A stretch of 64,000 nt of DNA, taken from positions 352,001-416,000 of the forward strand of contig CAVVUN010000001.1 of assembly GCA_963751455.1 (NCBI GenBank). Direction: 5' to 3'. This stretch comes from Nitrospirota bacterium. Lineage in GTDB: Bacteria > Nitrospirota > UBA9217. Below are positions 20,558 through 38,964 of the stretch, one piece after another. Each line of letters starts with the position of its first letter. The stretch's first letter is position 1. The position numbers and the translations under genes were made by a program. A model generated the notes under the pieces. It ran no database searches. It was not told the origin of the DNA and was given only the letters and a program-made list of their open reading frames with translations.

Positions 20558-20628
20558 AGCCTTTTATCCGCAGATTTCGCAGAGAGCACAGACGCCCCTG
20601 ACTCCTGTCTCCTGTCTTCTGTCTCCTG

Positions 20629-20672
20629 CCTGCACCCAGCGACTACGAGTGCGTCAGCGCAAGTGCAGGGTG
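20629..20672 (+). mobile_element. 44-bp mini-element A inserted in a 7-mer repeat tract
   Basis: CCTGCACCCAGCGACTACGAGTGCGTCAGCGCAAGTGCAGGGTG sits between the units TCTCCTG and TCTCCTC; homologous copies occur elsewhere in the window. Confidence 0.75.
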
Positions 20673-20685
20673 TCTCCTCACTGCC

Positions 20686-20907
20686 TTACTTACACCGCTC
20701 TCTCGCCCCCAACGCAAACAGAACAATGTTCATGGGGCAAAAGCCGGTCATAGCAAATACTATAAGCATTAAACCGACAAAACCTGTAAACAGGAACCAA
20801 GCCTCGTGTACGAAGTGCCCGAGCAGCGCGCTCCCGAAAACAAGGATGCCGGCAACAAGCCGGATGAGTCTTTCAAGGTACCACGATTTAGTATCTGCTA
20901 TATACAT
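20686..20907 (-). CDS. DUF2892 (YgaP-like) small membrane protein
   Basis: ERLIRLVAG...TGFCPM pattern, two TM; SD GGAGG before ATG 20907. Confidence 0.88.
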   Translation of the reverse strand: MYIADTKSWYLERLIRLVAGILVFGSALLGHFVHEAWFLFTGFVGLMLIVFAMTGFCPMNIVLFALGARERCK

Positions 20908-20948
20908 ACAAACCTCCAATTAAAATAACGCAAACTGCTCATTTCTAT

Positions 20949-21056
20949 CTCACACAAAGCCACAAAGGCACAAAGAAGGCTTAAATACTCGTGATTTTTA
21001 TAAACCTAAAGCATATAATCTTTTTCTTTCTTCGTGGCTTCGTGCCTTCGTGTGAG
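20949..21056. repeat. Palindromic element of inverted 9-mer tandem repeats
   Basis: CTCACACAAAGCCACAAAGGCACAAAGAA ... TTCTTCGTGGCTTCGTGCCTTCGTGTGAG. Confidence 0.8.
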
Positions 21057-21096
21057 TATACGTTCAGATGTTCGCGTCAATTTTGAATTGCCAGTT

Positions 21097-21837
21097 TCAC
21101 ATCCGCTCCCACTGACTGGTGTCTGGATTAAACGCCTCGCTGAATGCCGTAACCTCCTGCCGGAGGCCCACATCATAGCCCTCGTTCAATCCGAAGTTCA
21201 CGAGCATTTTGATGGCGCGGAGCGCACTGAGGCTGTTCGCTGCTATCCTGTTTGCAAGCCGTAATGCCTCTTCCTCGAGTGCGTGCGTGGGAACGATCTT
21301 GTTCACGAGACCGATGGTCAGCGCTTCTTCGGCATCAATAGCCCGGCCTGTGAACATAAGCTCCTTGGCCCGGCCGATGCCTACGGTTTTGTAGAGGCGC
21401 TGTGACGACCCGAAAATGGGCGGCACGCCGAATGTCGCTTCGGGAAACGAGAAGACCGCATCAGCGGCAGCGATGCGGATGTCCGCAGCAAGCGCGAGCC
21501 CGAGCCCGGCCCCCGTGGTCTCTCCCCTGACTGCAGCCACAACCGGGACAGGAAGGTCCTCGATATGCTTGAGCAGGTTGTAGCCCACTTCAGCAAAATG
21601 CGCTGCTTCATCCTTTGTCATCTTCAAGAACCCGGAATAGTCCAGGCCCGCTGAAAAATTTCTGCCTATTGCCTTGAGCAGGACCACCCGCAACTCGGCC
21701 TTGGACGATTTCATATCGCTCACGGTCCTGTTCAGTTGCGACAGGACTTCCTTGTCCAGATAGTTGTCAGGCGGGTTGTCAATAGTGACTATGCTGATCC
21801 GGTCTTTGCAGTACACATTGACTGTTGTGTTTGACAT
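21097..21837 (-). CDS. Enoyl-CoA hydratase/isomerase (crotonase) family protein
   Basis: FSAGLD, PVVAAVRG...GAG, FPE and AEEALTIGLVN. Confidence 0.9.
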   Translation of the reverse strand: MSNTTVNVYCKDRISIVTIDNPPDNYLDKEVLSQLNRTVSDMKSSKAELRVVLLKAIGRNFSAGLDYSGFLKMTKDEAAHFAEVGYNLLKHIEDLPVPVVAAVRGETTGAGLGLALAADIRIAAADAVFSFPEATFGVPPIFGSSQRLYKTVGIGRAKELMFTGRAIDAEEALTIGLVNKIVPTHALEEEALRLANRIAANSLSALRAIKMLVNFGLNEGYDVGLRQEVTAFSEAFNPDTSQWERM

Positions 21838-21898
21838 GATACCTCCGATTCGATTGCGGAATGCGAATTGCGGAATGGGGATTAAAATCCGAAATCCG

Positions 21899-22088
21899 CC
21901 TGCACCCAGCCTGCACCCAGTGTTTACGAGTGCATATTGCGCGAGTACAGGGTGCGCTTATGAGGTCCTTGATTCCCGTCTCGCGGTACTCAGCGAGATG
22001 GTACGACAATGAGTCTAATTATTAGCAGCACGAGCCTGCGCCCAACGAATTCGAGTGCGTCAGCGCGAGAGTAGGGTGTGCAGTGGCG
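21899..22088 (+). mobile_element. Nested composite of mini-elements: outer A containing A, B and A
   Basis: Outer A starts at 21899, inner A 21910-21954, B about 21965-22018, A 22035-22078. The whole unit interrupts the 7-mer tract AAATCCGAAATCCG|CAATCCGCAATT. Confidence 0.72.
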
Positions 22089-22101
22089 CAATCCGCAATT
22101 T

Positions 22102-25100
22102 CTACGCCTGCTCCCAGTGCTTTTTCTCGATCATATAGTAGAAAACGGGGATAACTATCAGAGTCAGGGCCGTGGAAGCCAGCATGCCGAAGATGAGCGC
22201 CATCGCCAGGCCGGACCAGACGGGGTCGCTGACAATAACAGCAGAGCCGAGAATCGCGGCTGCGGCTGTCAGAACAATGGGACGCGTCCGGATTGCGCCT
22301 GCCTCGATAAGAGCCTGCTCAAGCTGCATCCCCTCCTGTTTCTTATCAAGAATGAACTCGAGCAGCACGATCGAGTTCCTGACAACGATCCCGGCAAGAG
22401 CGATCACGCCTATCATCGAGGTCGCGCTGAAGTAGACCCCGGTCATCGCGAATCCCGGCATTATGCCGATCATCGAAAGCGGTATCGAGGCCATGATGAT
22501 CAAGGGTATCGTGAAGGACCGGAACCTGCCCACAAGCAGCAGGTAGATTGCGATCAGGGCCACTCCCATTGCGGCCCCCAGGTCCCGAAATACATCAAGC
22601 GTCAGCTTCATCTCGCCGTCCCACTTGATACGATAGCCTTCGGGCAGCGGATGCTTCCGCAGATAGGTCATCATATCGATCACCGCATACACCTGGCTTC
22701 TCGCGCCCATCTCACCGTACACATACGTAACGGGCTCGAGGTTCTTGTGATAGAGGGCCTTGTCCATCTCGGAAGGAACGACCTTCACGAGCGACGAAAG
22801 CGGCACCTGGCTGCCCTGTGCGCCGGATACATACACCTTGTCCATGTCGGAAAGGACGCTGCGCTGTCCTTTCGGCAGCCGCAGCATGATCGATACAGGA
22901 TTTTTTGCGCCGGGCCGGTGCAGCGTGGACACCGCCATCCCGGTCAACGAGAGTCGCAGCGTTTGTACGATCTGCTCGGTGGATACCCCTGCGAGGGCGG
23001 CCTTATCCTTGTCCACGAGCAGCCGGTATTTATCCTGGTTCTCCTTCACGCTGTCGTCGATATCGACGACCTGGTCGGTCCTGGCGAAAAGCGCCTTGAT
23101 CTCCTGAGCGATAGCGCGCTGCTTATTGTAGTCCGGTCCGTAGATCTCGGCGACAACGGTCGCCCGCACGGGCGGCCCCGGCGGGTCCTCGACAAGCTTG
23201 ATGTTCGCACCGTACTCACGGGCGAGTCCTTCGATATCGGGACGCATGGCAAGCACCAGTTTCTCGCTCGATTGTTTCCGCTCTTCCTTGTCAACGAGGT
23301 TCACCCGGATGTCGGCGAAGTGACTCTCTTCCCGAAACGCACCGCCCCTGAGCAGCCCGTTGAAGTCCATTACCGACCCGGTGCCTACGTAGGTCTCATA
23401 ATCTTTCACTTCGGGTATCCGATGCAGATAAGCCCCAAGCGCGCGCGCTGCACGGTCGGTGTTCTCTATGAGCGTGCCAGGCGGCATATCTATTGAAACC
23501 AGGAACGTGTTCTTGTTCGCCTTCGGCAGCATTCGAAATTGTACCCACTGGAAGAGCGGGAAACTCATTGTCACAAGAAAGACGACCGCAATGAGCCCAA
23601 GAAACATGTTGCGCCTGCGGGAAACCGCAAGAAGCGGGCCCAGTATCTTTTTATATGTCCGGTAGATAATGGTCTCCTCGAGGGAAGGCGGGTTAACGCC
23701 GTCATGATGGTCCGCTTTCATCAGCCGGTAGCTGGCCCAGGGCGTCACGATGAACGCCACAAACAGGGACGTGATCATGGCAACCGGTACATTGAACGGG
23801 ATCGGGCGCATATAGGGCCCCATCATCCCGGTCACGAAGGCCATGGGGATGAAGGCAAGCACTACCGTAACTGTTGCGAGTATCGTCGGCATCCCGATCT
23901 CGTTCACCGCAAGGATCGCCCCCTGCAGCCGGGAATGCTGCTGCAGCTTGTAGTGGCGATGGATGTTCTCGACTACCACGATTGCATCGTCCACCAGCAG
24001 ACCCAGTGATAGAATCAGGGCAAAGAGTGTGATCCGGTTGATGGTCTGGCCGGTCACCATTCCGATGGCGAGAGTGATAAAGAGCGTGAGCGGAATAGCG
24101 AGAGCCACGATGGCCGCTTCACGCCATCCGAGCGTCACAAAAAGAAGGATGATCACCACTACGATCGAAACGATAAGATGGAACACCAGCTCGTTCACCG
24201 CGTCGTTCGCTGCCTTGCCGTCGTTCCGGGTGACTGAGACCGTGATCCCCGGCGGGACTCTGGTGTTTTTCAGTTCCTCAAGTCTTGCGAGGATCTGGTC
24301 CGCAATCTTCACGGCGTTCAGCTTCTGACGTTTGGCCAGCGCTATCGTGACTGCGGGTTGTTCCTGCAGCGTCTCCGTACTCCCTGCCGCTGCATCCGGA
24401 CCTGCAGGCGCAGAGTGTCCGTCTCCGAAGGAAATGCGCGTGAGCTTGACGGTCTCTTCGAACCCGTCCGTAACGTCGGCCACGTCGCCCAGGTAGACAG
24501 GTTTGCCGTTTGAAACACCGACGATCGCATTCCTGACGTCGCTCGCTTTTTCAAAAAATCCACCCGTTTCGAGCGATAATTTTCTGTTTCCCTGCTCAAG
24601 GTCGCCGGATAGAAGATTTGCGTTGGAAACGGTGATCGCTCCTGCTATCTGGAGCGGAGACAGGCCGTACCCCGCCATCCTGAGCGGATCCAGGGTCACT
24701 CGTACCTGCGGACTTCTTCCGCCGATCACGAGGGAATTTCCAACGCCCGGCACTTTTCTGAGCTCGTCCAGAAGATGGTCTGCCACGAAGCGGAGCTGGG
24801 AATCGTCATAGTCGGCGCCCGCTGAACCCGACAGTGTAATTGCGACGATCGGCACATCATCCACGTCTATGGGCTTGACGAGCGGTTGAGACGCGCCGGG
24901 AGGCGAGAAATCCATGTTGGACATGAGCTTGTCGTAGAGCTTCACGAAGGACCGTTCTTTGTCCTGTCCCACTAAAAACTTGACGGTGACCACTGCCAGC
25001 GAGTTCATCGAGACCGAATATACGTCTTCGACGCCCGGTATCTCCCAGAGCTTTGCCTCCAGCCGCTTTGATACGAGTTCCTCCACTTCTTTTGCACTCG

Positions 25101-25275
25101 CGCCCGGAAGCTGCACCATTACGTTGGCGGCCGGCACCACGATTTGCGGGTTCTCCTCGCGCGGAGTCAACCAGAGCGCAAAGAGTCCGAGGATCGCCGT
25201 GGCCGCCATAAGCAGCACGGTAAGCTGCGAATTGATGAAATATTCCGTTATTTTGCCGCTGATATTGAGTTTCAT
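22102..25275 (-). CDS. RND efflux transporter permease (AcrB/CusA family)
   Basis: 1057 aa; GLLVDDAIVVVENI, GIVVRNSIVLLEF and RTRPIVLT. Confidence 0.96.
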   Translation of the reverse strand: MKLNISGKITEYFINSQLTVLLMAATAILGLFALWLTPREENPQIVVPAANVMVQLPGASAKEVEELVSKRLEAKLWEIPGVEDVYSVSMNSLAVVTVKFLVGQDKERSFVKLYDKLMSNMDFSPPGASQPLVKPIDVDDVPIVAITLSGSAGADYDDSQLRFVADHLLDELRKVPGVGNSLVIGGRSPQVRVTLDPLRMAGYGLSPLQIAGAITVSNANLLSGDLEQGNRKLSLETGGFFEKASDVRNAIVGVSNGKPVYLGDVADVTDGFEETVKLTRISFGDGHSAPAGPDAAAGSTETLQEQPAVTIALAKRQKLNAVKIADQILARLEELKNTRVPPGITVSVTRNDGKAANDAVNELVFHLIVSIVVVIILLFVTLGWREAAIVALAIPLTLFITLAIGMVTGQTINRITLFALILSLGLLVDDAIVVVENIHRHYKLQQHSRLQGAILAVNEIGMPTILATVTVVLAFIPMAFVTGMMGPYMRPIPFNVPVAMITSLFVAFIVTPWASYRLMKADHHDGVNPPSLEETIIYRTYKKILGPLLAVSRRRNMFLGLIAVVFLVTMSFPLFQWVQFRMLPKANKNTFLVSIDMPPGTLIENTDRAARALGAYLHRIPEVKDYETYVGTGSVMDFNGLLRGGAFREESHFADIRVNLVDKEERKQSSEKLVLAMRPDIEGLAREYGANIKLVEDPPGPPVRATVVAEIYGPDYNKQRAIAQEIKALFARTDQVVDIDDSVKENQDKYRLLVDKDKAALAGVSTEQIVQTLRLSLTGMAVSTLHRPGAKNPVSIMLRLPKGQRSVLSDMDKVYVSGAQGSQVPLSSLVKVVPSEMDKALYHKNLEPVTYVYGEMGARSQVYAVIDMMTYLRKHPLPEGYRIKWDGEMKLTLDVFRDLGAAMGVALIAIYLLLVGRFRSFTIPLIIMASIPLSMIGIMPGFAMTGVYFSATSMIGVIALAGIVVRNSIVLLEFILDKKQEGMQLEQALIEAGAIRTRPIVLTAAAAILGSAVIVSDPVWSGLAMALIFGMLASTALTLIVIPVFYYMIEKKHWEQA

Positions 25276-25300
25276 GAATTAGACCTAATGAACTATATTG

Positions 25301-25379
25301 GGACACGGATTTTCGCGGATTTTACGAATTTAAATATTGTTCTGGTATAAATCCGTAATTTCCGTCTTTATCCGTGTCC
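25301..25379. repeat. Palindromic element of inverted 9-mer tandem repeats
   Basis: GGACACGGATTTTCGCGGATTTTACGAATT ... AATCCGTAATTTCCGTCTTTATCCGTGTCC. Confidence 0.78.
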
Positions 25380-25398
25380 AAAATGATTTTGATTCAGT

Positions 25399-26484
25399 TT
25401 ACTTCTGCGCTACCACGACCTTCTTTCCGTCGATCCTCGTGTCCTGCTTGCTGACAATCACCCTGTCGCCGGCTTTCAGGCCGGTTATGGCCTCAACGTC
25501 GCTGCCCTGATCGTCTCCCAGTTGGACCATCTGGAACACGGCGCTTCCGTCAGGAGAAATGCGGTACACGCCGGTGAGACCCGCCATTTCGATCACCGCT
25601 GAGCGCGGTACCATAATCGCTTCACGCCTGCCGATGCTGAACAAGGCCCTGCCGTACATGCCGGTAATGAGGTTTCTGTTCTCCGGGATATCGATCTTTA
25701 CAATAAAGGAGTGCGTCCTTATATCGGCTGCAGGAACGATCTGCGCCACCTTGCCCCTGAGCTCCCTGCCCGGCAATGCGTCGATCAGGACTGCAACGGC
25801 CTGCCCCGGCCTGATGGACAGGATATCCTGCTCCTGCAGCGTTACCTCGAGCCGGAGATTCCTGTTGTCCTCGATCTTGAGCAGGGGCTGCCCCGGCATC
25901 GCCATTTCGCCGGGATTGATGTGCTTTTCCATGATCTGCCCTGATATCGGGGCGGTGATCGTAGTGTAGCTTTCCATGGCCCTTGCCGCGTTCAAGCCCG
26001 CTGTTGCGGATTCAAACCCGAGCATGGCCTGATCCATCTCCATCTTGGTCGCGGCATCCTCGTCAAAGAGGCTTTTAATCCGATCATGATGGAGCTTTGC
26101 GTTGTTGTAAGCTGCCTGGGCCTGGTATGCCTGCGCTCTGATTTCTCCGCTGTCTATCTTGACCAGAAGGCTGCCTTGGGAAACATGGTCTCCTTCGTTT
26201 ACCGTCACCTCTACTCTGCCCATCACCTTGCTCGAAATAACAGAAATGTTCCTGGAGTTGAGCGTTCCGGCAGCTGACACTATCGAATCAACAGTTCTTG
26301 GTTGAATCGTTGCGGCGGAGACCTCGAGCGGCAGCTCCGGCCTTGTCACGCCCGGCTCATGGGAGGTTTTCCCGAAGGTCATGCTGGAAAAGCCCGCTGC
26401 CGTGACCACAGCTATGATCAATACGCCATACATCCTCTTTTTATCAACTGTCTTTATCATTTCTTTTACAACCCGAATGTCCAT
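25399..26484 (-). CDS. RND periplasmic adaptor (membrane fusion protein)
   Basis: N-terminal TM, V..GDHVSQG..L, ITAPISG and GLKAGDRVIV; SD GGAGG before 26484. Confidence 0.93.
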   Translation of the reverse strand: MDIRVVKEMIKTVDKKRMYGVLIIAVVTAAGFSSMTFGKTSHEPGVTRPELPLEVSAATIQPRTVDSIVSAAGTLNSRNISVISSKVMGRVEVTVNEGDHVSQGSLLVKIDSGEIRAQAYQAQAAYNNAKLHHDRIKSLFDEDAATKMEMDQAMLGFESATAGLNAARAMESYTTITAPISGQIMEKHINPGEMAMPGQPLLKIEDNRNLRLEVTLQEQDILSIRPGQAVAVLIDALPGRELRGKVAQIVPAADIRTHSFIVKIDIPENRNLITGMYGRALFSIGRREAIMVPRSAVIEMAGLTGVYRISPDGSAVFQMVQLGDDQGSDVEAITGLKAGDRVIVSKQDTRIDGKKVVVAQK

Positions 26485-26535
26485 GATATCCTCCACTGCT
26501 CTTTTATTCCGCATTCTTTTTTTCGAACTTCTTAC

Positions 26536-27882
26536 TCACAGATTTCCCGTTGCCAGCTTCAGCTCAGCCTCAGCGATATTATTATCATAAAGCGCTTGAA
26601 GCGCACTGGTCCTTGCGCGAATAAGCGAGCTCTCTGCACCGAGCACATCCACGAAGGTGGTCATTCCCGTCTCGTAGCGTTTCTGCACGATCCTCAGGCC
26701 TTCTTCCGCTTCATGCACTGATGACGCTGTTGCTGCTATACGGTCCGCAGATGCGCTGAAATTATAATAGGCCTGTCGGACCTCAAGCTGGACCGCCTCA
26801 CGGAACTGTTCCTCAAGAGAGCGCATCCGGCTGCCCGCTGCATGGGCCTCTTTTATCTTCGACCGTGTTACAAGCCCGTCGAAAAGATTCCACTGAAGCA
26901 CCGCCATAACCGCCCAGCTCCTGGCGTCGTCCCCTGCAGCGCGGTCGCTGTTCCAGTCTACCTGGCCGATGAGGTTCAGTTTCGGCAGATAATCCGTCCT
27001 GGCCATATCGACGGATTTATCCGCGTTCCTGCGGTTCAGGTCCATGGCGAGCAGGTCCGGACGTTTAACGGCTGCCTCATGCAGCGCGGCATTGAGCTCG
27101 CTGTTAATTTCCTGCGGGATGAGCGAGCCCGTTATCTCATACTCGGTCTCCTGCGCAATTCCCATAGCGAAATTAAGCGAGGCAGCCGACAGCCTCACGC
27201 CGTTTTCTGAACGGGTGACCATCTCTTTCACTTCGGCATGCTGCACCTTTGCCCTCAGGACATCCGACTGCAGTACGGCGCCCGCCCTGTTTCGCAGCTC
27301 GGCCAGTTTGAGGGTTTCGGCGCTCGTTTTGAGCGATTGCAATGCTACCGTATTGTGCGCTCGTGCGAGCAGCAGCCCATAGTAGGCCTTGATAACGTTA
27401 TAGACTGTTTCCTGTCTTGTCCTGTCACGCTGCAGGACAGATGCCTCCTGGCCCAGTTTCGCCTGGGATCTGCCGATATATTCTCTTCCGCCGTTAAACA
27501 GCGGCTGCGTAACGGAGAGCCTCGTATTGTAGTTCGAAATCGCATCCGGGTTGTTCATGTTCGGCGGATTGAAATCGGACTGGCTTACGATCTCCCTGTT
27601 CAGCCTGGTGCCCAGCACCATCAGGGGATTGTCCGTCCTGCTCCAGGTCTCGGATAGGTTCACCTTCGGCAGAAACCCGGAGGCCGATCCCAGCACGTTC
27701 GCGTCAGCGGCTTCAATCCGGGCATCGGCCGCTTTGATTCCCGGATTGCTGCTCAGCGCCGTTTCGACGGCCTGTTCGAGTGTAAGTTGCTCGGCGGCAT
27801 AGCTTACGGATGCCGCTACTAACGTCAACAACACCAGCAGAAGGGCCATCACTGCTCCGATGATGATTTTACATGTCGTCAT
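26536..27882 (-). CDS. TolC-family outer-membrane efflux protein
   Basis: Signal peptide, LTLEQAVETAL, two OEP repeats and RYETG...DVL.AE. Confidence 0.93.
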   Translation of the reverse strand: MTTCKIIIGAVMALLLVLLTLVAASVSYAAEQLTLEQAVETALSSNPGIKAADARIEAADANVLGSASGFLPKVNLSETWSRTDNPLMVLGTRLNREIVSQSDFNPPNMNNPDAISNYNTRLSVTQPLFNGGREYIGRSQAKLGQEASVLQRDRTRQETVYNVIKAYYGLLLARAHNTVALQSLKTSAETLKLAELRNRAGAVLQSDVLRAKVQHAEVKEMVTRSENGVRLSAASLNFAMGIAQETEYEITGSLIPQEINSELNAALHEAAVKRPDLLAMDLNRRNADKSVDMARTDYLPKLNLIGQVDWNSDRAAGDDARSWAVMAVLQWNLFDGLVTRSKIKEAHAAGSRMRSLEEQFREAVQLEVRQAYYNFSASADRIAATASSVHEAEEGLRIVQKRYETGMTTFVDVLGAESSLIRARTSALQALYDNNIAEAELKLATGNL

Positions 27883-27884
27883 GT

Positions 27885-28220
27885 TTACGCCTTCGATATT
27901 GCCGCATGCCCGGCCATGTTCCATAGGACTATACCGCCTTCAAGATTTTTTACACTGTACCCAAGGCCCCCCAGGTAGGAGCAGGCATAGGCACTCCGAT
28001 TGCCGATCCGGCAGTACACCACGATCTCGCTGTCCCGGGGCAATTCCTTAAACCGGTGCGGCAGTTCCTGAAGCGGAACAAGATAGGAACCATCTATGGC
28101 CTGCTCGGCGTTCTCCTGCGGGGTCCTCACATCGAGCAGCAGAAACTGCTTTCCGGACAGCCTCATCTCGTGCAGTTCATCAGGTCCAATATTTTTGCAT
28201 TGATAATTATTGAAAAACAT
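27885..28220 (-). CDS. Single-domain rhodanese (sulfurtransferase)
   Basis: LLDVRTPQE, active-site loop YCRIGNRS and NLEGGI..W. Confidence 0.92.
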   Translation of the reverse strand: MFFNNYQCKNIGPDELHEMRLSGKQFLLLDVRTPQENAEQAIDGSYLVPLQELPHRFKELPRDSEIVVYCRIGNRSAYACSYLGGLGYSVKNLEGGIVLWNMAGHAAISKA

Positions 28221-28320
28221 AGCGCTTCTCCTCTTCACAAAGCCGGAACAATGGACACTGTCACTACACGGGGGATAAGATGGAATGACAGTGCCATTGT
28301 TCGCGCTTGCTCTTCACTAT

Positions 28321-28444
28321 ATCAATTGACATGCCAAAATATAAGCTTCTGATTTAGTTGGGATTTGAATTCAGGCAAGCAAATAATTTATCAAAATAAG
28401 CGGTAATCTTTGTCGAGTGTTTTCTTATTTCGACATTTATGTCG
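28321..28444 (-). promoter_or_regulatory. Putative sigma-54 promoter with IHF-like site and upstream activator palindrome
   Basis: Minus strand TTGGCATGTCAATTGAT (28337-28321; GG at -24, GA instead of GC at -12); AATCAGAAGCTTA resembles WATCAANNNNTTR; palindrome CGACATTTATGTCG at 28431-28444. Confidence 0.55.
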
Positions 28445-28580
28445 GACCACGAACATTGATTGTAATGATGAGAGTCAGGTATGGAGGAACTTCTGGCCTT
28501 CCTTCTTTACGGACTTAACAGGCGGGTAGCCTCAGGGAGAAGCAGAGCGGAATAATTATATGGATAATTCTATCGAATAA

Positions 28581-28655
28581 AAAAAACCCTCACGCCTTCG
28601 CTTGCACCCGGCGTTTACGAAAGCTCAGCGCGAGTGCAGGGTGTGAGGGTTTTTT
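28581..28655. terminator. Intrinsic terminator of the c7 gene, interrupted by mini-element A (28601-28643)
   Basis: Removing 28601-28643 gives AAAAAACCCTCACG-CCTT-CGTGAGGGTTTTTT, a perfect hairpin. Confidence 0.8.
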
Positions 28656-28672
28656 CGTGGATAAAAGCATGC

Positions 28673-28987
28673 TTACTTCTTATGGCATTTCGCGCAGCTG
28701 TCTGCTTCCTTGACACCGAACGCCTTGGTGCCGTTGTGGCAGGTGCCGCACTGTTTCCCTTCCTGCATTTCCTTCATGGTCATCTTGGCAGTACCTTTTT
28801 TCATTTTGAACACGGCTGGATGGCAGTCGTTGCATTTGTTGACTTTGTGCTTGTCCCCGTCGAATACGACTTTGCCTGCGCCGCCGCCTTCAAATTCCAG
28901 CTTCTTTCCGGGCCCGACAGCAAATGCTGAAGCTGTAAATGCCAATGTTACCATTACAACCAATACAAGAGCGATTAGCTTTCTCAT
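28673..28987 (-). CDS. Periplasmic triheme cytochrome c7 (PpcA-like)
   Basis: SD AAGGAGG, signal peptide, three CxxCH (CNDCH, CGTCH, CAKCH), G.V.F..D.H pattern. Confidence 0.92.
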   Translation of the reverse strand: MRKLIALVLVVMVTLAFTASAFAVGPGKKLEFEGGGAGKVVFDGDKHKVNKCNDCHPAVFKMKKGTAKMTMKEMQEGKQCGTCHNGTKAFGVKEADSCAKCHKK

Positions 28988-29260
28988 TGTATCACCTCCT
29001 TTCATCTCCGTCTGGTGTTATGCTGAACTTCTCTCATTTGTATAATCGGGAAATAATAAGCGGGAGCGAAATTATTCATACTCACATAAGTCGCGGTCGC
29101 ATGAGGCATATATTCGGACAGGGATTGCATGGAAAACTATTACTAGATTAATAGAAAACAATCTGGCTGTCAAGAAATCAAGAAGGGAAATGATAGTTTG
29201 AAGGAGGAGCAGCTTCGTTTTTTTGCAATTTACGGCGGAATGTTGCTGTTTTTTTCAGAT

Positions 29261-29291
29261 AAAAAAAGCCCTCACGTTTTCCGTGAGGGCT
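29261..29291 (-). terminator. Intrinsic terminator of the second c7 gene
   Basis: AGCCCTCACG/CGTGAGGGCT stem followed by a T7 tract on the minus strand; paralogous to the terminator at 28581. Confidence 0.8.
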
Positions 29292-29313
29292 GTGCTGCTG
29301 GATAATGACAAAC

Positions 29314-29637: not shown

Positions 29638-29721
29638 GAGATTCACCTCCTTTCATTACTCAATTGGATACGCCGTACCGGATAATAATTATGGGTATAA
29701 ATCTCCGTTACGGAAACACGC

Positions 29722-30735: not shown

Positions 30736-30781
30736 AATTTCCCCTCCCAGATAGTAGCAGAAAATACACAAAGACTTGGTG

Positions 30782-30810
30782 TTTATAGCACAGGCGAGCA
30801 AACATGTCAA
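30782..30810 (-). promoter_or_regulatory. Sigma-70 promoter of the multiheme/c7 genes
   Basis: TTGACA-17 nt-TATAAA with an extended TG. Confidence 0.7.
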
Positions 30811-31118
30811 TAGGCATGATGGTGGTATATCGGACGTTCTAACTAATTAAAAATAATCAGAATATTCTGAAAAAAATATCGGAAACTTAAAGGTCCCTGC
30901 ATAGCTATGAATAAAGTCGTAAAATGATTGATTACTGATTAGGTCGAACGGTCCGAATCAGGAAAACACGCGCAGATGATTTTCATAAATCATAAGACCT
31001 TTACAAGAGAACGGAAAATAAAATTTAGAACTGAGACCAAAGGATTTTGAATTCACGCTTCATCATTTGATGCAATGCCGCTTAAAATATTTTAAAAGAC
31101 CAAAGACAAAATCAATTT

Positions 31119-31214
31119 TCTCGCAAAGGCGCAGAGTTCGCAAAGAAAGGCAATTCATTTGGGTTTAAACCCTGATTTAAGGATTCCCTTTGCGTCCTTT
31201 GCGCCTCTGCGAGA
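31119..31214. repeat. Palindromic element of inverted 9-mer tandem repeats
   Basis: TCTCGCAAAGGCGCAGAGTTCGCAAAG ... CTTTGCGTCCTTTGCGCCTCTGCGAGA. Confidence 0.8.
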
Positions 31215-31332
31215 GATGACTTTGATGTTGGTGTTGCTTCGTCAGGCTGAGACAATGCCCTCTTAAAATATTTTATGTGTTAAGTCAATGTCAAAATCAA
31301 AACCCATTACCCTCTGTGTCAATATAAGTGAG

Positions 31333-31442
31333 ACACCTCCCGTATGGGACCGGAAGAGTACGACAATGAGTCTGAGGGTTCTCGCTTGCTAGCGAGATGG
31401 TACGACAATGTGTTTAGTTAGTAGTAACACGTATCCAGGGTG
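31333..31442 (+). repeat. Degenerate copies of mini-element B
   Basis: GTACGACAATGAGTCTGA and CTCGCTTGCTAGCGAGATGGTACGACAATG, ending in an A-like CAGGGTG. Confidence 0.6.
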
Positions 31443-31626
31443 CGGCTTCGTGTAAGACCTTTTGATTATGAAACCGCAAGAAAATCTCACTAAGACTATC
31501 CTCTCAAATTGCAAACAATCAGTTTATTATAACTGCAACTTTATGCTACGTTTTATATTGACAAGCCTTTATGCGCAGAGTTAGATAATCAGCGAGCGCT
31601 GTTTCAAAGAGCATGAAGGAGGGAAG

Positions 31627-32040
31627 ATGAAGAGACGTAACTTCCTCGGAGTCATCTTGGGATCTCTCGGGTCAATCACATTCGCATCGTTTGGTTATTC
31701 GCTGTTCAGACTTCTTACCTCGGCACCCGCCAAGGCAGTCGAATCAAAAGAAGTAATCATTGCGAAAGTTGATGTCCCCTACGGAGGGAGCAAGAACATC
31801 ACGTTTGGAGACATTCCGGTCGTGGTCATCAACCGGCCTGAAAAAGGATACATCGCTTTTTCACGCACCTGCACCCATTTCGGCTGTCTCGTCGATTTCA
31901 ACAAGGACCGTCAAAAGATCATCTGCCCCTGCCACGCCGGCACCTATGATCTCGACGGAACCGTATTATCGGGTCCGCCGCCCAAACCGCTGACGCGCAT
32001 TCCTGTAAAAATAGAAGGAGAAAACCTCATTGTAGGGTGA
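31627..32040 (+). CDS. Rieske 2Fe-2S subunit of a bc-type complex (CbcV-like)
   Basis: Tat motif KRRNFL, CTHFGC, CPCHAGTY and SGPPPKPL. Confidence 0.95.
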   Translation: MKRRNFLGVILGSLGSITFASFGYSLFRLLTSAPAKAVESKEVIIAKVDVPYGGSKNITFGDIPVVVINRPEKGYIAFSRTCTHFGCLVDFNKDRQKIICPCHAGTYDLDGTVLSGPPPKPLTRIPVKIEGENLIVG

Positions 32041-32044
32041 GCTT

Positions 32045-33148
32045 ATGTGGAAAAAAATAAAAGAATGGCTTGATGTACGGTTCGGTCTGAATGCAATCCT
32101 GGAGACACAACTCCGCGAACAGGTCCTCGACTACCGCATCCCGAAGAATACGAATATCCTCTACACGCTCGGTTTTCTCACGGTCGTCGCGTTTTGCATT
32201 CAGGTGTTCACGGGAATCATTCTCCTGACCTGCTACATTCCTCACCCCGACCATGCGTTCAGCAGCGTACAGGACATCATGACGAAGGTCCCCTTCGGGT
32301 GGCTCTTCCGAGAGATGCACTCAATCGGCAGCAACCTCCTGATTACCATCGTTCTGCTGCACATGGTAACTGTGTTTCTCATGGGGAACTACAAGCGGCC
32401 GAGAGAACTCACCTGGGCCGGCGGCGCACTTGCCCTCATAGTCGTAATAACGTTCGGCTACAGCGGCCATCTGCTGCCGTGGAACCAGATGAGCTACTGG
32501 TCGACCACGGTGGTAACGTCGATGCCGACCGCGTTCCCCGTTATCGGCGAGACCATCGCCCGCCTTCTGAAGGGCGGCGACCATATCACGGGAGTGACGC
32601 TGAGCAGGTTCTTCGCGCTGCATATCGCCATTCTGCCGTCCATCTTTGTGGGACTGATCGCAGTCCATCTCTTTATGATCTACCGCACGGGAATCTCGGC
32701 GACCCCTTTCGGGATGTCGGATACGGAAGGACGCCCCGGTTCGGAATATATACGAAAAAACCACCCGGACGGGTATCCTTATTACCCCGCCTTTTTTAAG
32801 AAGCAGATGTATATGATGATGGCGTACTTCGCGGTCCTGTTCTTCATCATGACGTTCATGCCCACGCTGTATAATTCCCCGGGCGACATGATTGCGGCTG
32901 ACCCGTATAAAACCCCTCCCGGGATACGGCCCGCATGGTACCTGGTCGCGCAATACCAGTTCCTGAAACTCATTCCGAACAAATTTCTCGGCATAGCCGT
33001 TCAGATCATCCTGGTATTCGCTTTTATTGCCTGGCCTTTCCTCGACAGGCAGGAGGAAAAAAATCTGATGAAACGGCCCCTCCTGAGAGGCGTATTCATA
33101 GTCCTGCTTGCCGCATGGCTTCTTCTGCTGTTTTGGGGGAGGAACTAA
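32045..33148 (+). CDS. Cytochrome b subunit (b6 fused to subunit IV; CbcW-like)
   Basis: GWLFREMH, LLHM, YKRPRELTW, LSRFFALH, AVHL and the Qo motif variant RPAWY. Confidence 0.95.
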   Translation: MWKKIKEWLDVRFGLNAILETQLREQVLDYRIPKNTNILYTLGFLTVVAFCIQVFTGIILLTCYIPHPDHAFSSVQDIMTKVPFGWLFREMHSIGSNLLITIVLLHMVTVFLMGNYKRPRELTWAGGALALIVVITFGYSGHLLPWNQMSYWSTTVVTSMPTAFPVIGETIARLLKGGDHITGVTLSRFFALHIAILPSIFVGLIAVHLFMIYRTGISATPFGMSDTEGRPGSEYIRKNHPDGYPYYPAFFKKQMYMMMAYFAVLFFIMTFMPTLYNSPGDMIAADPYKTPPGIRPAWYLVAQYQFLKLIPNKFLGIAVQIILVFAFIAWPFLDRQEEKNLMKRPLLRGVFIVLLAAWLLLLFWGRN

Positions 33149-34033
33149 TGAAAAACGCAATCATTGTCCTGGCGATCATATTCCTTCTGCCCGCTGCAGC
33201 ACGCGCGGGATACCGGGAGGATTTCGAAAATGAATTTATGACAAAAACGTGGGCAGGCCTGCAGATGGAGGAAAATCTCTGCATCTCCTGCCATGCTTCG
33301 GAGCAGATGAAGCCGGAATATCGCCAGATCACCCAGGCGTGGCAGTCGAGCTGGCATGCCCGGAACAATATCTCATGTGAGAATTGCCACGGCGGAGATC
33401 CGAAGGACGCCGCGCTCGCCATGTCCCGCCAGCGGGGCTTTGTCGGAATACCGAAATATGAGGATGTCCCGGAGTTCTGCGGAAAATGCCATATCGGGAT
33501 TCTTGCGAACTTCCAGGACAGCGGCCACGGCAAAGCGCTCAAGTCAGGAAGAGTTTCAGAAAGCTCTGCGGCGATCAAGACAGGTAAAAAAGCTCCCAAC
33601 TGCATCACGTGCCACGGTACGCATGATATTCAGAAGGCAGGCATCGACATCATCAACGAACAGCTCTGCACAAAGTGTCATTCGTACGAGCGGGCGAAGA
33701 TCATGAAACAGGCCCTTTTCCTGACCGAAGAAAAGATCGGGCTGCTCGAAGAAAAAGCTGGCTGATCTGAAGCGGGAAGGGATCTATTCCCAGGCGGATG
33801 AGAAAAATCTCTTTAGCACCGAAGCGGAATTCCGTGCCCTTTTCCATACGGTTGATGTGAACGTGGTGAAGGAACGGACGGACGAGTTTACGAAACGCTT
33901 GAACGTGATCGACAACAACATCAAGGCAACCTATCGGGAATTGAGATTCAGGAAAAACTTCTCCGGCTTATTAATGCTGGCCTTTGCCGGAATGGGTATC
34001 GTCATATTTCTGATGCCCAATAAAAAGGAATAG
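33148..34033 (+). CDS. Pentaheme cytochrome c with C-terminal membrane anchor (CbcX-like), frameshifted in an A-run at about 33752-33756
   Basis: Signal peptide; CISCH, CENCH, CGKCH, CITCH, CTKCH. The +1 frame continues LADLKREG...FRALFHTVDV...GLLMLAFAGMGIVIFLM to TAG 34033. Confidence 0.85.
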
Positions 34034-34190
34034 TATTTCTGTTGGGGCAATGTTTCATGTCACATAAGGCTGCATGATATTTTCCTCCACCCTTCCCCTC
34101 CTCTACGGAGATGCTCTCCCGCCGGCTCCCTCTCCCTGAAGAGAGAGGTTTTGCCGGGACAAGCGGGCGGTGTACGACACGGAGACAAAC

Positions 34191-34703
34191 ATGAAGAAAC
34201 TCAAAGCAGGACCGATTCTCCATCTCATCATACTTGCAGGGATCACCGTCTTTGCAGGGATTGCCCATGCCGAAGATGATGATATCCCGAAAAGATTCTT
34301 TGTAGCGCCCCCGCCCTTTTCTTCCGGAATATTTCCCTGTTCTCAGTGTCATTCAGGCATGCCTGCTGACCGGAAACAGCGCAAGCTGAGCATGCATGAG
34401 GACATCGTTCTGAAACACATGCCTGGCGGGTGGTGCTTTGACTGCCACAATCCGGACAACCGGGACAAACTCCGGCTCGCAAACGGCAAGCAGGTCAAAT
34501 TCGAGGAATCGTACATCCTGTGCGGGCAGTGCCACGGCACGGTCCTGCGCGACTGGAAAGCGGGGCTCCACGGCAAGAGAACAGGAAGCTGGAACGGCGA
34601 AAAGCAGTATCTCCTCTGCGTAAGCTGCCATTGGCCCCATGACCCGCCGTTCAAAGCGATAAAGCCCTTGCCTCCGCCGATGAGGCCTGCGGACATTAAA
34701 TAA
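34191..34703 (+). CDS. Tetraheme cytochrome c (CbcS-like)
   Basis: Signal peptide; CSQCH, CFDCH, CGQCH, CVSCH; DWKAGLHGKRTG. Confidence 0.9.
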   Translation: MKKLKAGPILHLIILAGITVFAGIAHAEDDDIPKRFFVAPPPFSSGIFPCSQCHSGMPADRKQRKLSMHEDIVLKHMPGGWCFDCHNPDNRDKLRLANGKQVKFEESYILCGQCHGTVLRDWKAGLHGKRTGSWNGEKQYLLCVSCHWPHDPPFKAIKPLPPPMRPADIK

Positions 34704-34746
34704 TGAATGAGGCAAGCCTCAGACAATTAAAGCGAAACGCCGTTGA

Positions 34747-34853
34747 ACCGCGAAGGCGCGAAGGACGCGAAGAAAACCATACGACAAAATCTTTTTCTGG
34801 TTTTTAACCCGATTCAAATCTTGCATTCCTCGCGTCCTTCGCGCCTTCGCGGT
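34747..34853. repeat. Palindromic element of inverted 9-mer tandem repeats
   Basis: ACCGCGAAGGCGCGAAGGACGCGAAG ... CTCGCGTCCTTCGCGCCTTCGCGGT. Confidence 0.82.
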
Positions 34854-34938
34854 AAATGCTTTTTTGTTTTTATTTTGCAGAAACTTGATTCAAAATTTAA
34901 TACCGGTTTGTAAGTATTTATAGAGAACTACGAGGCGA

Positions 34939-35865
34939 ATGATGGGAAAAATAGAGAAAAAAAAGGGCGGCGTGCATTTCGACCGCAGGACGTTCATGAA
35001 AGGCGCCGCCCTCGCCCTGGGCGGTCTGACGATTCCTCTCAAAGCAGACGCGGGATTCTGGGAATCGTTCTTTCAAAAGCGCTTCACGGAAATGAACGAC
35101 GCGGAGAAAAAGCAGGTGATTACACGGCTCGAACAAGAGTACGGAGAAAAATATAAAAAGGCCATTACAATCGGCAATGAAAACGCAATCCCGGGCGTGC
35201 TCTTCGGTTACGGCCTGGATCTGTCGAGATGCATCGGCTGCAGAAAGTGCGTGTACGCCTGCGTCGACGAGAACAACCAGTCCAAGGACCCGCAGGTCCA
35301 CTGGATATCGGTCCTTCGTTTCAAAAAGGGCGAAAAGTGGGTGGACCTCGAAGAGTCCGAAAAATATTACAACCCGGAGCTGGTCCCCGAGGAAGGGTAT
35401 TTCACGATGCCGGTACAGTGCCAGCAGTGCGAGGACCCGCCCTGCGTCCGCGCCTGTCCGACCCAGGCCACCTGGAAGGAGCCGGACGGGATCGTGGTCA
35501 TCGACTATAACTGGTGCATCGGCTGCCGCTACTGCATGGCCGCATGCCCCTACGGCGCGCGCCACTTCAACTGGGCCGAACCGGGCCGCAAGCCCGAGGA
35601 GCTCAACCCCAACACGCATTATCTCGGGAACCGGCCGCGGTACAAAGGTGTCGTCGAGAAGTGCACGTTTTGCATTCAGCGCACCCGGAAAGGGCTCTAT
35701 CCCGCATGCGTGGAGGCCTGCCCTGTCGGGGCCAGGAAGTTCGGAAACCTCCTCGACCCGAAAAGCGAAATCCGGTACGCTATAGAACATAAGAGGGTCT
35801 TCCGCCTGAAGGAAGACCTGAATACGAATCCGAAGTTTTATTATTTCTTCGCATACGGCAGGTAG
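34939..35865 (+). CDS. Tat-exported 4x[4Fe-4S] NrfC/DmsB-like subunit (CbcT-like)
   Basis: DRRTFMK; CIGCRKCVYAC, CQQCEDPPCVRACP, CIGCRYCMAACP and KCTFC...ACVEACP. Confidence 0.94.
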   Translation: MMGKIEKKKGGVHFDRRTFMKGAALALGGLTIPLKADAGFWESFFQKRFTEMNDAEKKQVITRLEQEYGEKYKKAITIGNENAIPGVLFGYGLDLSRCIGCRKCVYACVDENNQSKDPQVHWISVLRFKKGEKWVDLEESEKYYNPELVPEEGYFTMPVQCQQCEDPPCVRACPTQATWKEPDGIVVIDYNWCIGCRYCMAACPYGARHFNWAEPGRKPEELNPNTHYLGNRPRYKGVVEKCTFCIQRTRKGLYPACVEACPVGARKFGNLLDPKSEIRYAIEHKRVFRLKEDLNTNPKFYYFFAYGR

Positions 35866-35876
35866 GAGGTCCTTTC

Positions 35877-37163
35877 ATGGGCAGCGTGATCAAAAACTTT
35901 TTCATTGCCTTGCGCCAGGTCTTTATAGGGAGCCGGGCTTATTATCTCTGGATTGCGTTCCTGTCCCTCTTCATTCTGCTCGGGTTCAGCGCATACGCCG
36001 ATCAGCTCCAGCAAGGACTCATCACGACCGCAATGCGGGACCAGGTCTCCTGGGGCCTGTACATCTCGAACTTCACCTTCCTTGTCGGCGTGGCCGCGGC
36101 GGCGGTGCTCCTTGTCGTTCCGGCGTACCTCTACAACTTCAAACCGATCAAAGAGATCGTGCTGTTCGGCGAGCTGCTCGCCGTGACCGCGATCACGATG
36201 TGCATCCTGTTCATCCTGGTCGACATGGGACAGCCGATGCGCGTATGGCATATCCTGCCGCTCCTCGGGGCCATGCACTTCCCCGCATCGCTGCTTGCAT
36301 GGGACGTGGTCGTATTGAACGGGTATCTCGCCATAAACGGCATCATTGCCTTCTACGTCCTGTACCGGCTGTCGATCGGCAAGGAATACAGCATGTCCGT
36401 GATCGGTCCCCTGATCATTCTCTCGATCCCCTGGGCCGTGAGCATCCATACCGTGACCGCGTTCCTCTACAACGGCTTATCCGCACGGCCGTTCTGGAAT
36501 GCCTCGATCCTGGCCCCCAGATTTCTTGCTTCGGCATTCTGTTCCGGGCCTGCGATCATGCTGGTCCTGTTCCAGATCATCAGGAAACGCTCCGAGGTGG
36601 AGATCGACAACCGGGCCATTTTTAAAATAGCTGAATTGATCGCCTACGCAATGGCTATCAACCTGTTCCTTCTGGGCGCAGAGGTGTTCAAGGAATTTTA
36701 TTCAGGCGCGGTCGACAGTTATTCTATCCGGTATCTCTACCTGGGTCTTCACGGGAAGACCAGCCTGGTGCCCTGGATGTGGGCCGCAACCTTCATGAAC
36801 ATTACGGCGTTCTTCCTGTTCCTCTTCCCGAAGACCCGGGAGAATTTCACGACCCTCAATATCGGATGCATCCTGATCATCATGGGCGTGTATATTGAAA
36901 AGGGCATGGGCCTGATAGTCCCCGGCTTTGTTCCGGACAGCCTCGGGGAAATTTATGAGTACTCTCCTACCACGTCGGAGATTCTGGTAACGATGGGGAT
37001 CTGGGCCTGCGGCGCGCTTCTGTACACGGTGCTCCTCAAATTTGCCGTACCGATTTATACCGGGAAGCTCAGGTTCGAAACGAAGGAGAGGACAGGTTAC
37101 AACAACCCCATAGCAGGACACACAACAGCAGAACACACAGCAGGATCGCACGGTAGGAACTGA
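35877..37163 (+). CDS. NrfD/PsrC-family quinone-interacting membrane subunit (CbcU-like)
   Basis: WGLYISNFTFLVGVAAAAV, VDMGQP, SLLAWD, SIHTVTAF and RFLASAF. Confidence 0.93.
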   Translation: MGSVIKNFFIALRQVFIGSRAYYLWIAFLSLFILLGFSAYADQLQQGLITTAMRDQVSWGLYISNFTFLVGVAAAAVLLVVPAYLYNFKPIKEIVLFGELLAVTAITMCILFILVDMGQPMRVWHILPLLGAMHFPASLLAWDVVVLNGYLAINGIIAFYVLYRLSIGKEYSMSVIGPLIILSIPWAVSIHTVTAFLYNGLSARPFWNASILAPRFLASAFCSGPAIMLVLFQIIRKRSEVEIDNRAIFKIAELIAYAMAINLFLLGAEVFKEFYSGAVDSYSIRYLYLGLHGKTSLVPWMWAATFMNITAFFLFLFPKTRENFTTLNIGCILIIMGVYIEKGMGLIVPGFVPDSLGEIYEYSPTTSEILVTMGIWACGALLYTVLLKFAVPIYTGKLRFETKERTGYNNPIAGHTTAEHTAGSHGRN

Positions 37164-37196
37164 CGAGACGATCATATCAAACATCTTCTCTCTGTT

Positions 37197-37245
37197 GTCA
37201 CCTTTCTTGCGCGCCCAAGAAAGGTGACCCAAAGAAGGGCACCCG
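37197..37245. repeat. Strong hairpin, probably the end of a MITE/REP-like repeat
   Basis: GTCACCTTTCTTG-CGCGCC-CAAGAAAGGTGAC followed by CCAAAGAAGGGCACCC. Confidence 0.55.
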
Positions 37246-37466
37246 GCGGAAATCCTTTACGGCATGCTTGGTCGTCCTCAGTACGATAGAAATCTCAAAC
37301 AGTCCGAAATGCTTAACCCTCGGATAGCCTGTATTCGCGCATGTGCACTCATAATCACCGGCCACGAGTTCGGTCACATGCCTAGATTTTCGCATGGGAA
37401 AGAACAACAAGCTACCACACAAAACCCGGAAGATCCAGATGTTCTACTTACTCCAGAATTGACTCA

Positions 37467-38033
37467 TTACGCATCACGAAGTCTGCTCTTTATCGCTTCC
37501 CATATTTCAATCAGGCCCAGGCGCCGCGCCCAATCGGTTATGTAGGCCATATCAATCGCTTCACCGCTGACCTTGAGAATGCCCGTAATATCACGAAGAT
37601 GCTTTTCTGACCCGCCGTCACGGTAATACTCCATTTTCTTGATAATGACGTCCTCCGGAGCCGCAAAATTTGCCTGAAAGGTTTCGGCGGGATTTATTCT
37701 CCTGATACGGCTGAATCGGCTCGCGTCAAATGCTGTGTCGCTGCTGACTATCACGTCTACCTTGAGGCCGGATGCAGGATGAATGATATTGAACTGGCCA
37801 TGAGCTCGTATCGCCTCCCTGATCATGTCACCGTCAATGTAATAGTTATCCGAAGGAAAGGCAGCGAGCAACCCCGGAATGTGCCGTACCCCAAGCACTG
37901 CCACGATATCTACGTCATTCGTAAGCCGGGGTTCGCCGTAAGCCATTGCGGCCACAGAACCCGTAACAAGATAAGGAACAGAAAGCCGTTCGAAGACATC
38001 AACAATCTTGTGCAGAAGCTCAAACGGCTCCAT
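37467..38033 (-). CDS. Nucleotidyltransferase-fold protein, putative toxin
   Basis: TGSVA...YGEPRLTNDVD (GS...RxTxDxD), PEDVIIKK and KHLRDI. Confidence 0.85.
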   Translation of the reverse strand: MEPFELLHKIVDVFERLSVPYLVTGSVAAMAYGEPRLTNDVDIVAVLGVRHIPGLLAAFPSDNYYIDGDMIREAIRAHGQFNIIHPASGLKVDVIVSSDTAFDASRFSRIRRINPAETFQANFAAPEDVIIKKMEYYRDGGSEKHLRDITGILKVSGEAIDMAYITDWARRLGLIEIWEAIKSRLRDA

Positions 38034-38247
38034 GCGACATCCTCCTCGCGACTTCGCCGTAAAGCTGTTCGTCGGACCAAACAGGGTGCTCTCTCCGCAA
38101 ATGCGCGATGAGCATCGTACGTGCCGCGGTCCAAAGGCCAAAGCCTATCGCGATCCGTTCGGCCGGCGTTTTTCGCCGCAGTACAGCCGCCATTGCGTCG
38201 TCAACGATCTCGATTTGTCCTTTATCCAGCCGCAATGTTTTTGACAC
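38020..38247 (-). CDS. Small partner protein, putative antitoxin
   Basis: SD GGAGGAG before GTG 38247; 75 aa with KTPAERIAI...HPVWS..L..EVARR; overlaps the NTase start. Confidence 0.75.
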   Translation of the reverse strand: MSKTLRLDKGQIEIVDDAMAAVLRRKTPAERIAIGFGLWTAARTMLIAHLRREHPVWSDEQLYGEVARRMSHGAV

Positions 38248-38366
38248 GACTCCTCCGCGTCTTTTATGAGTTATCAACAAATCAAGAAATAAGGTTTGAT
38301 CCTGATCCATCAATTACTGGTTAGAATTTTAGCATAGTTTGAAATGAAATACGATGATTTTGAGCA

Positions 38367-38964
38367 AAAGGAATGGGGCTGATCGTCCCCGGCTTTGTTC
38401 CGGACAGCCTCGGGGAAATTTATGAGGCCCCTGATTCCCGCCTGCACCCAGTCGGTTACGAGTGCACTGCGCGAGTGCAGGGTGTCTCGCGATCCATAGC
38501 GAGATGGTACTACAACGAGTCTAAGAATTTCCCCTGATTCCCGTCTGCACCCAGCGTTTATGAGGTCCTTGATTCCCGTCTCGCGCTTCTCAGCGAGATG
38601 GTACTACAATGAGTCTAAGCAGTCGGCACTGCGCGAGTGCAGGGTGTCTCGCGATTCATAGCGAGATGGTACGACAACGAGTCTAAGTATTATGCGACAG
38701 CGGGAATTCAGGGCGGAACTGCGAACTCGCGACAGCGAGGCTCAACCGAGCCACGCGCGAGTGAGCGGATAGATTTTTCATTGTCCACTACTCCTTCTCG
38801 ATAGATTTATCTTTGTCCATCTGCCCCTCGCCCTCCAGGGAGAGGCTGGGGTGAGGGTGGGTCTTCTGAGAAGGATGGGATGAGGATGGGTTCCACCCCG
38901 GCGGAGCCGGGGGAAGCCAAGGCGCGGGATAACGATGGGAATCTGGGCCTGCGGCGCGCTTCTG
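38367..38964 (+). pseudogene. Displaced 3' fragments of the nrfD-like gene, split by repeat elements
   Basis: 38367-38426 matches about 36900-36959 (KGMGLIVPGFVPDSLGEIYE) and 38930-38964 matches 36988-37022 (TMGIWACGALL); the differences I aligned are synonymous. Confidence 0.8.
38427..38713 (+). mobile_element. Nested cluster of mini-elements A and B
   Basis: B contains A (38441-38484). A second B contains A (38544-38646), which itself contains B (about 38565-38618). Confidence 0.78.

Follow-up and report, generated by a model that had tools for sequence, protein, structure and literature searches.

How repeats of fewer than 50 bases (REP, SDR and SMR) spread in bacteria is a long-open question, and it is raised by a 64000-nucleotide stretch of a Nitrospirota genome (G000:C1:352001-416000, hereafter the window; the source assembly, G000, comprises 5.72 Mb in 15 contigs). 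Recurring in the window is a small unit, element A, which an earlier sequence-only reading had described as inserting without target duplication into hairpins, repeats and copies of itself. We found all seven copies that it had listed, each preceded by a G and followed by a pyrimidine, and an eighth. A is a real, family-restricted and very small mobile element of loosely known kind, and the sequence upstream of its insertion point is biased towards complementarity with an unpaired part of its own fold. A provides hundreds of clean junctions and orthologous empty sites.

Insertion boundaries and distribution of element A

Of the 126 complete copies, 44 left, on removal of A, a 16-mer that recurs exactly at another place in the genome (register 0,0). 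Equivalent registers on the diagonal gave 22, 46 and 26 matches, and off-diagonal registers 0–4, save for one-heptamer shifts, which gave 8 and 10. Eleven copies end in A, and the four of these with an exact empty 16-mer fit a single register, showing that the preceding G belongs to the target and not to the element. No flanking duplication was present in 110 of the 126 copies; 13 had two bases, and the two longest were tandem tracts. The claims that excision restores a recognizable empty site and that a target-site duplication is lacking thus both held. The combination of terminal inverted repeats and target duplication looked for in a MITE was not found, the stem of A being offset from the end by a 4–5-base tail.

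Empty alleles were also found at orthologous sites. The cytochrome c7 terminator that A splits in the window carried no A at any of 40 c7 genes from 28 loci of relatives, and the terminator hairpin was intact, as judged by eye, in 39 of the 40. A gene fusing nifE and nifN (G000:C15:1051931-1054897; locus L136) has repeats filling two of its loops; A occupies one site here and is missing from it in G061, and the other site carries a different A variant in each of the two genomes. This genome holds 78 independent A junctions. These paralogous and orthologous empty sites, together with patchy copy number and nesting, bear out the notion of a very small non-autonomous unit that enters repeats, hairpins and itself, and we regard the mobility of A as almost certain. 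As a separate observation, the homologous c7 terminators of relatives often lie directly upstream of a tRNA-like sequence similar to tRNA-Sec (17631-17725), which was the single Rfam match in the window.

A is not limited to these loci. An nhmmer profile built from 84 seed copies (threshold E≤0.01) gave 170 matches on both strands of the genome, and a pattern anchored in the interior of A gave 220 distinct copies in the genome and fetched loci; because neither had any match in the reversed genome, the family is not a product of chance. Within this Nitrospirota family a strict pattern occurred in 14 of 36 genomes, with no match among 24 genomes from other families, and a wider one in 35 of 60 family genomes and in three of 190 others, the latter with a single match each, at the control rate. 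A is confined to one Nitrospirota family. In a species-representative collection, 85 stretches carried A; among the 80 listed, 74 were titled Nitrospirota, five Betaproteobacteria and one Acidobacteriaceae. We rejected the betaproteobacterial label, since most of the flanking genes match those of this genome, with up to 86% identity; for the single copy labelled Acidobacteriaceae we found no explanation. Three viral loci, on two contigs, also carry A. Copy number within genera ranged from 0 to 53 (g19) and from 0 to 55 (g11), which points to separate expansions, and the 126 complete copies comprised 122 distinct sequences.

Other parts of the initial description needed revision. The statement that all copies lie on the plus strand was wrong, as the eighth copy (37325-37368) is on the minus strand and both strands are used genome-wide. 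The rule that each copy follows a G applied directly to 186 of the 220 copies and to 27 more with a fifth tail base; seven fitted neither way, and the minus-strand copy follows an A. A pyrimidine at +1 was present in 84 of 102 non-self sites of the genome and its relatives, and so is a tendency and not an absolute requirement.

Fold and target sites

Across its forms, A is 31–45 bases long and follows one plan: a 5′ tail of 4–5 bases, a terminal stem of five pairs, an inner stem of three pairs, a variable loop and, on the 3′ side, a near-invariant 7-base bulge, GAGTGCA. With the arms left free in the pattern, pair 1 of the terminal stem was C-G in 174 and T-A in 31 of the 220 copies, pair 3 was C-G in 194 and G-C in 18, and pair 5 was C-G in 211 and A-T in five, with a mismatch tolerated at pair 2 (A-C in 58). 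These compensatory pairs indicate that shape, and not sequence, is conserved; the subfamilies are related, however, so the changes represent few events and not hundreds. In the inner stem, C-to-T changes outnumbered G-to-A changes, which fits one folded strand. Folding energies of single copies were modest (z from −0.1 to −2.3). Tails were CCTG in 168 copies and CTTG in 37, the short forms having TTTA. Of the two ways in which the ends had been proposed to pair, CACCC/GGGTG covaries, whereas CCTGCAC/GTGCAGG is largely lost in the TTTA-tailed copies. The plan recurs in a 31-base form, present 13 times in the genome and also in metagenomes, where this form follows a G in 58 of 81 matches, chance matches included, among the 80 fetched loci listed.

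A had been said to favour structured DNA, and a repeat, hairpin or tandem tract was indeed present at 42 of the 78 independent sites compared with 398 of 2000 intergenic G sites. Sequence complementary to the bulge, however, is the more sharply defined determinant. Over the 102 non-self sites left after de-duplication (125 minus 23 self or B sites, B being a second element described below), target positions −9 to −3 formed a mean of 2.87 Watson–Crick pairs out of seven with the bulge, compared with 1.88±0.12 at other G positions of the matching empty context (maximum of 2000 draws, 2.33) and 2.05 for same-strand sites. The signal held separately for the 49 sites of this genome and the 53 of other genomes, and bulge against −9 to −3 ranked first of 1184 pairs of element and target windows placed off the fixed G (z 7.7). 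In the identical register the 31-base form had 2.80 pairs compared with 2.03 (n=20, p=0.005). At −4, T, which pairs with the bulge, was found at 59 sites and C, which would match the left end of A, at 23, favouring bulge pairing over likeness to that end. Thus the target bias upstream of the insertion G complements the bulge.

Two refinements were abandoned: a −8 to −2 register for the short forms was gone once self-targets were removed, and a spacer-dependent register had too few cases (n=5). We also observed the 31-base TTTA form repeatedly at one site in the antisense strand of the 43-base A (G000:C3:124344, C12:411207 and C15:249169; loci L224-L288), where the −9 to −3 register fits poorly and the −8 to −2 register well. 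Self-nesting of A otherwise used three sense sites (8, 8 and 3 of the 126 copies) and, in this set, never the antisense bulge site.

Copies lying well inside long reading frames had a length divisible by three in 10 of 13 cases, compared with 44 of 113 other copies. Their hosts are presumably cobalamin genes, nifEN, a radical SAM gene and a deacetylase-family gene, names that we assign by sequence likeness. The cobalamin operon (G000:C9:84000-98000) contains at least seven copies, four of them in frame within three genes. A also reshapes genes of its lineage, its insertions in nitrogenase-cofactor and cobalamin genes preserving the reading frame.

The features of the window are collected in Table 1. 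The outer copy at 21899 was present as described, but its extent had to be corrected to 22088, with three inserts (A, B and A).

Table 1. Copies of elements A and B in the window
Feature	Position	Strand	Context
Element A, 44 nt	20629..20672	+	At end of 7-mer tract 20597-20628; empty junction once elsewhere in genome
Outer element A	21899..22088	+	Heptamer tract host; three later inserts inside; right arm with one extra base
Element A, 45 nt	21910..21954	+	Nested in outer A (21899) after arm and AG; target −9 to −3 fits bulge at 6/7
Element B, 58 nt	21965..22022	+	In loop of outer A (21899)
Element A variant, bulge GAGAGTA	22035..22078	+	Nested in bulge of outer A (21899)
Element A, 43 nt	28601..28643	+	Splits cytochrome c7 terminator (gene 28673-29005), which is empty at homologous genes
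Element A, eighth copy	37325..37368	-	Compensated arms TGGCC/GGCTA; after an A; empty host repeat on contig C12
Element B	38427..38528 (ends approximate)	+	Split by A at 38441-38484
Element A, 44 nt	38441..38484	+	Within B; empty junction eight times in genome
Second element B	38531..38690 (ends approximate)	+	Split by composite A 38544-38646
Element A composite, 103 nt	38544..38646	+	B in its loop
Element B, 58 nt	38565..38622	+	In loop of composite A; this A-loop site filled by B 29 times in genome

Element B (58 nt, 68 pattern matches) has the same plan as A, namely a terminal stem, a 3′ bulge and an inner stem, and inserts after G. Its 29 occurrences in the loop of A span seven arm variants, and it also nests in itself. 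Head-to-tail arrays of B have a period of 58–59, with units carrying one extra base (G000:C14:28106, C15:1572032 and C15:1354538). Several copies of A, of its short form and of B are inserted, on both strands, in multicopy repeats of 200–300 bases (G000:C3:220150-220650, C15:249050-249800 and C15:1174350-1175450). Between two A-bearing intergenic regions of the window lies a frame of 224 residues with no Pfam match (37467-38141).

A candidate mechanism and its rivals

In our analysis A is best modelled as an IS200/IS605-like element, collapsed and single-stranded, that is moved in trans. A, inserting precisely after G, would be cut and rejoined as a folded single strand by an HUH-type enzyme (IS200/IS605- or RAYT-like) supplied in trans, and its invariant 7-base bulge would act as a guide by pairing with target positions −9 to −3. 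We infer that the ends are joined as a single-strand circle, in which the terminal stem would close over the 4–5-base tail as a loop with the junction on the 5′ side of that loop. The observed junctions would result if the circle were cut at its junction and the target after its G, and the strands were then exchanged. The model as a whole is plausible, and we hold it tentatively. Together with its covariation-backed fold, A carries a sharp prediction, that changing the seven unpaired bases moves the landing site; if the bulge is a guide, A would represent scarless, DNA-guided insertion in minimal form. A bolder form of the idea, in which a self-guided DNA of 31–45 bases unites both ends and a programmable 7-base guide in one fold, is served by an undescribed class of enzyme and may explain the cyanobacterial SDRs too, seems to us rather unlikely.

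A number of results weigh against the single-strand model. The guide hypothesis was derived from the same data as its support. The mean match is below three of seven, the signal lies mostly at −4 and −3, and one window site scores 0. No covariation of bulge and target was detected when bulges were permuted among sites (p=0.58), nor between the long and short classes (p=0.33) or for the loop copy (p=0.23). The loop contains another GAGTGC with almost the same fit (2.84), a motif that the copy scanned for the 1184 pairs lacked. Known guides are of four bases and lie 5′ of the hairpin foot, whereas the putative guide of A is a 3′ bulge. Strand bias relative to replication, which had been proposed as a check, was weak as judged by GC skew (41 compared with 61, p=0.06), and its trend was opposite to that expected from a preference for the lagging-strand template. 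As to the enzyme, the genome has 33 Y1, four IS110 and six reverse transcriptase matches, and the ends of A flanked none of the 33 Y1 or four IS110 frames, nor any of two further sets of 20 and 14 Y1/RAYT loci, which include part of the RAYTs of the family; no reverse transcriptase, integrase or nuclease gene among those inspected carried them either. We compared 30 A-carrying genomes of the family (at least five pattern matches) with 34 A-poor ones, most of the 64 being incomplete and kin not being independent. Pfam Y1 matches were present in 22 of 30 A-carrying and 32 of 34 A-poor genomes, and the single-contig genome G032 has four true A copies and no Y1 or RAYT match.

These absences have to be read with care. 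One RAYT, in G090, escaped the Y1 search, and G018 retains a REP although no RAYT cognate to it was found there, showing that cognate enzymes can be missing from a repeat-carrying genome; enzyme absence is therefore weak evidence. The RAYTs of this genome carry their own REPs and not A, and the RAYT whose REP often hosts A has close homologues in four of the 64 genomes. Neither Y1 nor IS110 tracks A across these genomes, so the action in trans of an HUH- or IS110-type enzyme, as put forward by the sequence-only reading, is a class assignment that we, too, infer. Clustering of the genes next to 195 A matches gave no enriched mobility gene, and parsing of orphan ends, which were read by eye, gave no gene between A ends within a pairing limit of 260 bases, the long pairs being nested elements or chance pairs. 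Paralogue clusters, inspected by eye, contained no obvious partner of A, and B arrays shared no common flanking gene among the matches listed. A search for IS91 Y2 was negative in five genomes, its control also matching nowhere, and GIY-YIG genes were present in all five genomes tested, including the A-free G027.

A likeness between the left end of A and the inverted repeats of TIRYT elements was not supported, no TIRYT being flanked by A. Some twenty Y1 frames of the TIRYT type (subclass 2.1) in the genome have terminal inverted repeats, and short tandem repeats often follow them (G000:C1:546104, C15:1291667, C3:253155 and others); one TIRYT remnant carries an in-frame A (C15:213598). In the window, a truncated TIRYT-like Y1 gene (41728-42042) adjoins an rve-domain transposase (40451-41374), apparently having been split by that insertion sequence.

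Among the alternatives, a nuclease-ligase of local repeats (a GxxExxY protein of the PD-(D/E)XK type, for example) could read the target, the bulge being its binding motif and the match a by-product. The lack of covariation between bulge and target would fit such an enzyme, and GxxExxY genes are commoner in A-carrying genomes (28/30 compared with 21/34, p=0.003; 9/9 compared with 1/6 in genus g19), as are four-helix-bundle genes (26/30 compared with 20/34). However, kin are not independent, such genes may just indicate that a genome abounds in the tandem repeats targeted by A, and no such gene family was enriched beside A. In addition, we know of no strand-transfer activity of GxxExxY-type proteins, and a literature search found no paper on it. 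We consider this explanation unlikely.

An RNA copy of A might also be the moving form, with the bulge pairing to the target like the exon-binding site of a group II intron and a reverse transcriptase completing the insertion. Group II introns do pair with upstream target sequence and insert precisely without duplication, six reverse transcriptase matches are present in the genome, and the excess of C-to-T over G-to-A in the inner stem would suit one folded strand. This route is nevertheless improbable: reverse transcriptases are rarer in A-carrying genomes (12/30 compared with 24/34), A shows no bias towards the sense strand of genes (31 sense, 46 antisense, p=0.11), Rfam matched nothing in the window beyond tRNA-Sec, and 31 bases would be too small for any ribozyme core known to us.

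We give little credence to an IS110-type recombinase with a bridge RNA and a core of 1–3 bases around the G. IS110 elements target palindromic repeats, and the lack of duplication and the short microhomology across the junction (the diagonal registers) are as they should be, but IS110 was present in 16 of 30 A-carrying and 21 of 34 A-poor genomes, none of the four frames is flanked by A, the A-ending copies have no shared core base, and a double-stranded circle of 31–43 bp is implausible, the stem covariation pointing to a single strand.

An equally slight chance attaches to the integron integrase, an enzyme that recombines folded single strands after G and might insert A at secondary sites. 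It showed the strongest co-occurrence found (22/30 compared with 10/34, p about 0.001). On the other hand, attC sites are larger than A, which lacks their AAC/GTT core, no A was found in 30 integrase loci, and the integrase matches of this genome are partial. According to bioRxiv 2022.09.11.507474 the secondary sites are G-W-T, whereas a T at +2 was present in just six of 102 A sites. Integron-type integrases with open frames of about 480–500 residues occur in 32 of the 64 family genomes (loci L333-L362).

That A is itself immobile and spread purely by being carried along in larger repeats or through gene conversion would explain several copies in one host repeat, as is mostly the case in G032, but as the sole route it is largely refuted by unique-site insertions, and we think it barely tenable given the 78 independent junctions, the empty c7 terminators, the in-gene insertions and the diversity of the copies. 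Some copies have also multiplied passively within larger repeats.

Comparison with known small elements

The sequence-only reading could name no described family for A. A lacks defining features of REP, PATE and MITE, and the literature, in a search short on subscription journals and on the SDR paper, contained no description of it. Six motifs, compared with Geobacter multicopy families in supplementary files 1–12 of PMC2996986, had no match, and in the files of the same numbers of PMC2700814 the single match was an unrelated CRISPR spacer.

By its description, the Rickettsia RPE resembles A in its in-frame insertion in protein genes, RPE-1 being longer (PMC3733652). SMR-A of Haloquadratum likewise makes no duplication, targets the palindromes of other elements and has no known mobilizer; unlike A it is archaeal, about 110 bp long and bounded by terminal inverted repeats (PMC3119063). 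SDR1-8 of the Nostocaceae share with A their very small size, precise insertion in a fixed context and a mechanism described as unknown, but they are about 20 bases long, are reported solely in Nostocaceae, and SDR5 targets HIP1 (PMC5861425, PMC4390886, PMC2884548, PMC3116915). This likeness follows the descriptions of citing papers, and Elhai et al. 2008 may already discuss target pairing.

REP and REPIN sequences resemble A in having a bulged hairpin with a 4-base tag on its 5′ side, numerous intergenic and some in-frame copies and a lineage-restricted distribution. Their tag, however, is GTAG, GGAG or CGTC, whereas that of A is YYTG or TTTA-like, and no RAYT flanks A; A, moreover, inserts as single units precisely into other REPs, after G, the REP/RAYT junction being C|T (PMC3733652, PMC6006769, PMC8266576). 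Of the hallmarks of a REP, A thus has the imperfect hairpin with a conserved bulge, and neither the REP tetranucleotide tag nor the flanking RAYT was found.

Guide-directed site choice, single-stranded DNA circles and lack of duplication are traits of the IS200/IS605 family (PMC6006769, PMC8266576), and a 52-bp PATE consisting of the ends only (the terminal form of ISHwa23) may be mobile (PMC3119063). PATEs come close to A, being non-coding, palindromic, very short, nested, free of terminal inverted repeats and target duplication, and by inference mobilized in trans (Dyall-Smith et al. 2011, PMC3119063). They derive from recognizable IS605 ends, whereas A, on inspection of this genome and 34 fetched loci, resembles no IS200/IS605 end; A is also smaller, at 31–45 bases, and would have its 7-base guide in an internal bulge.

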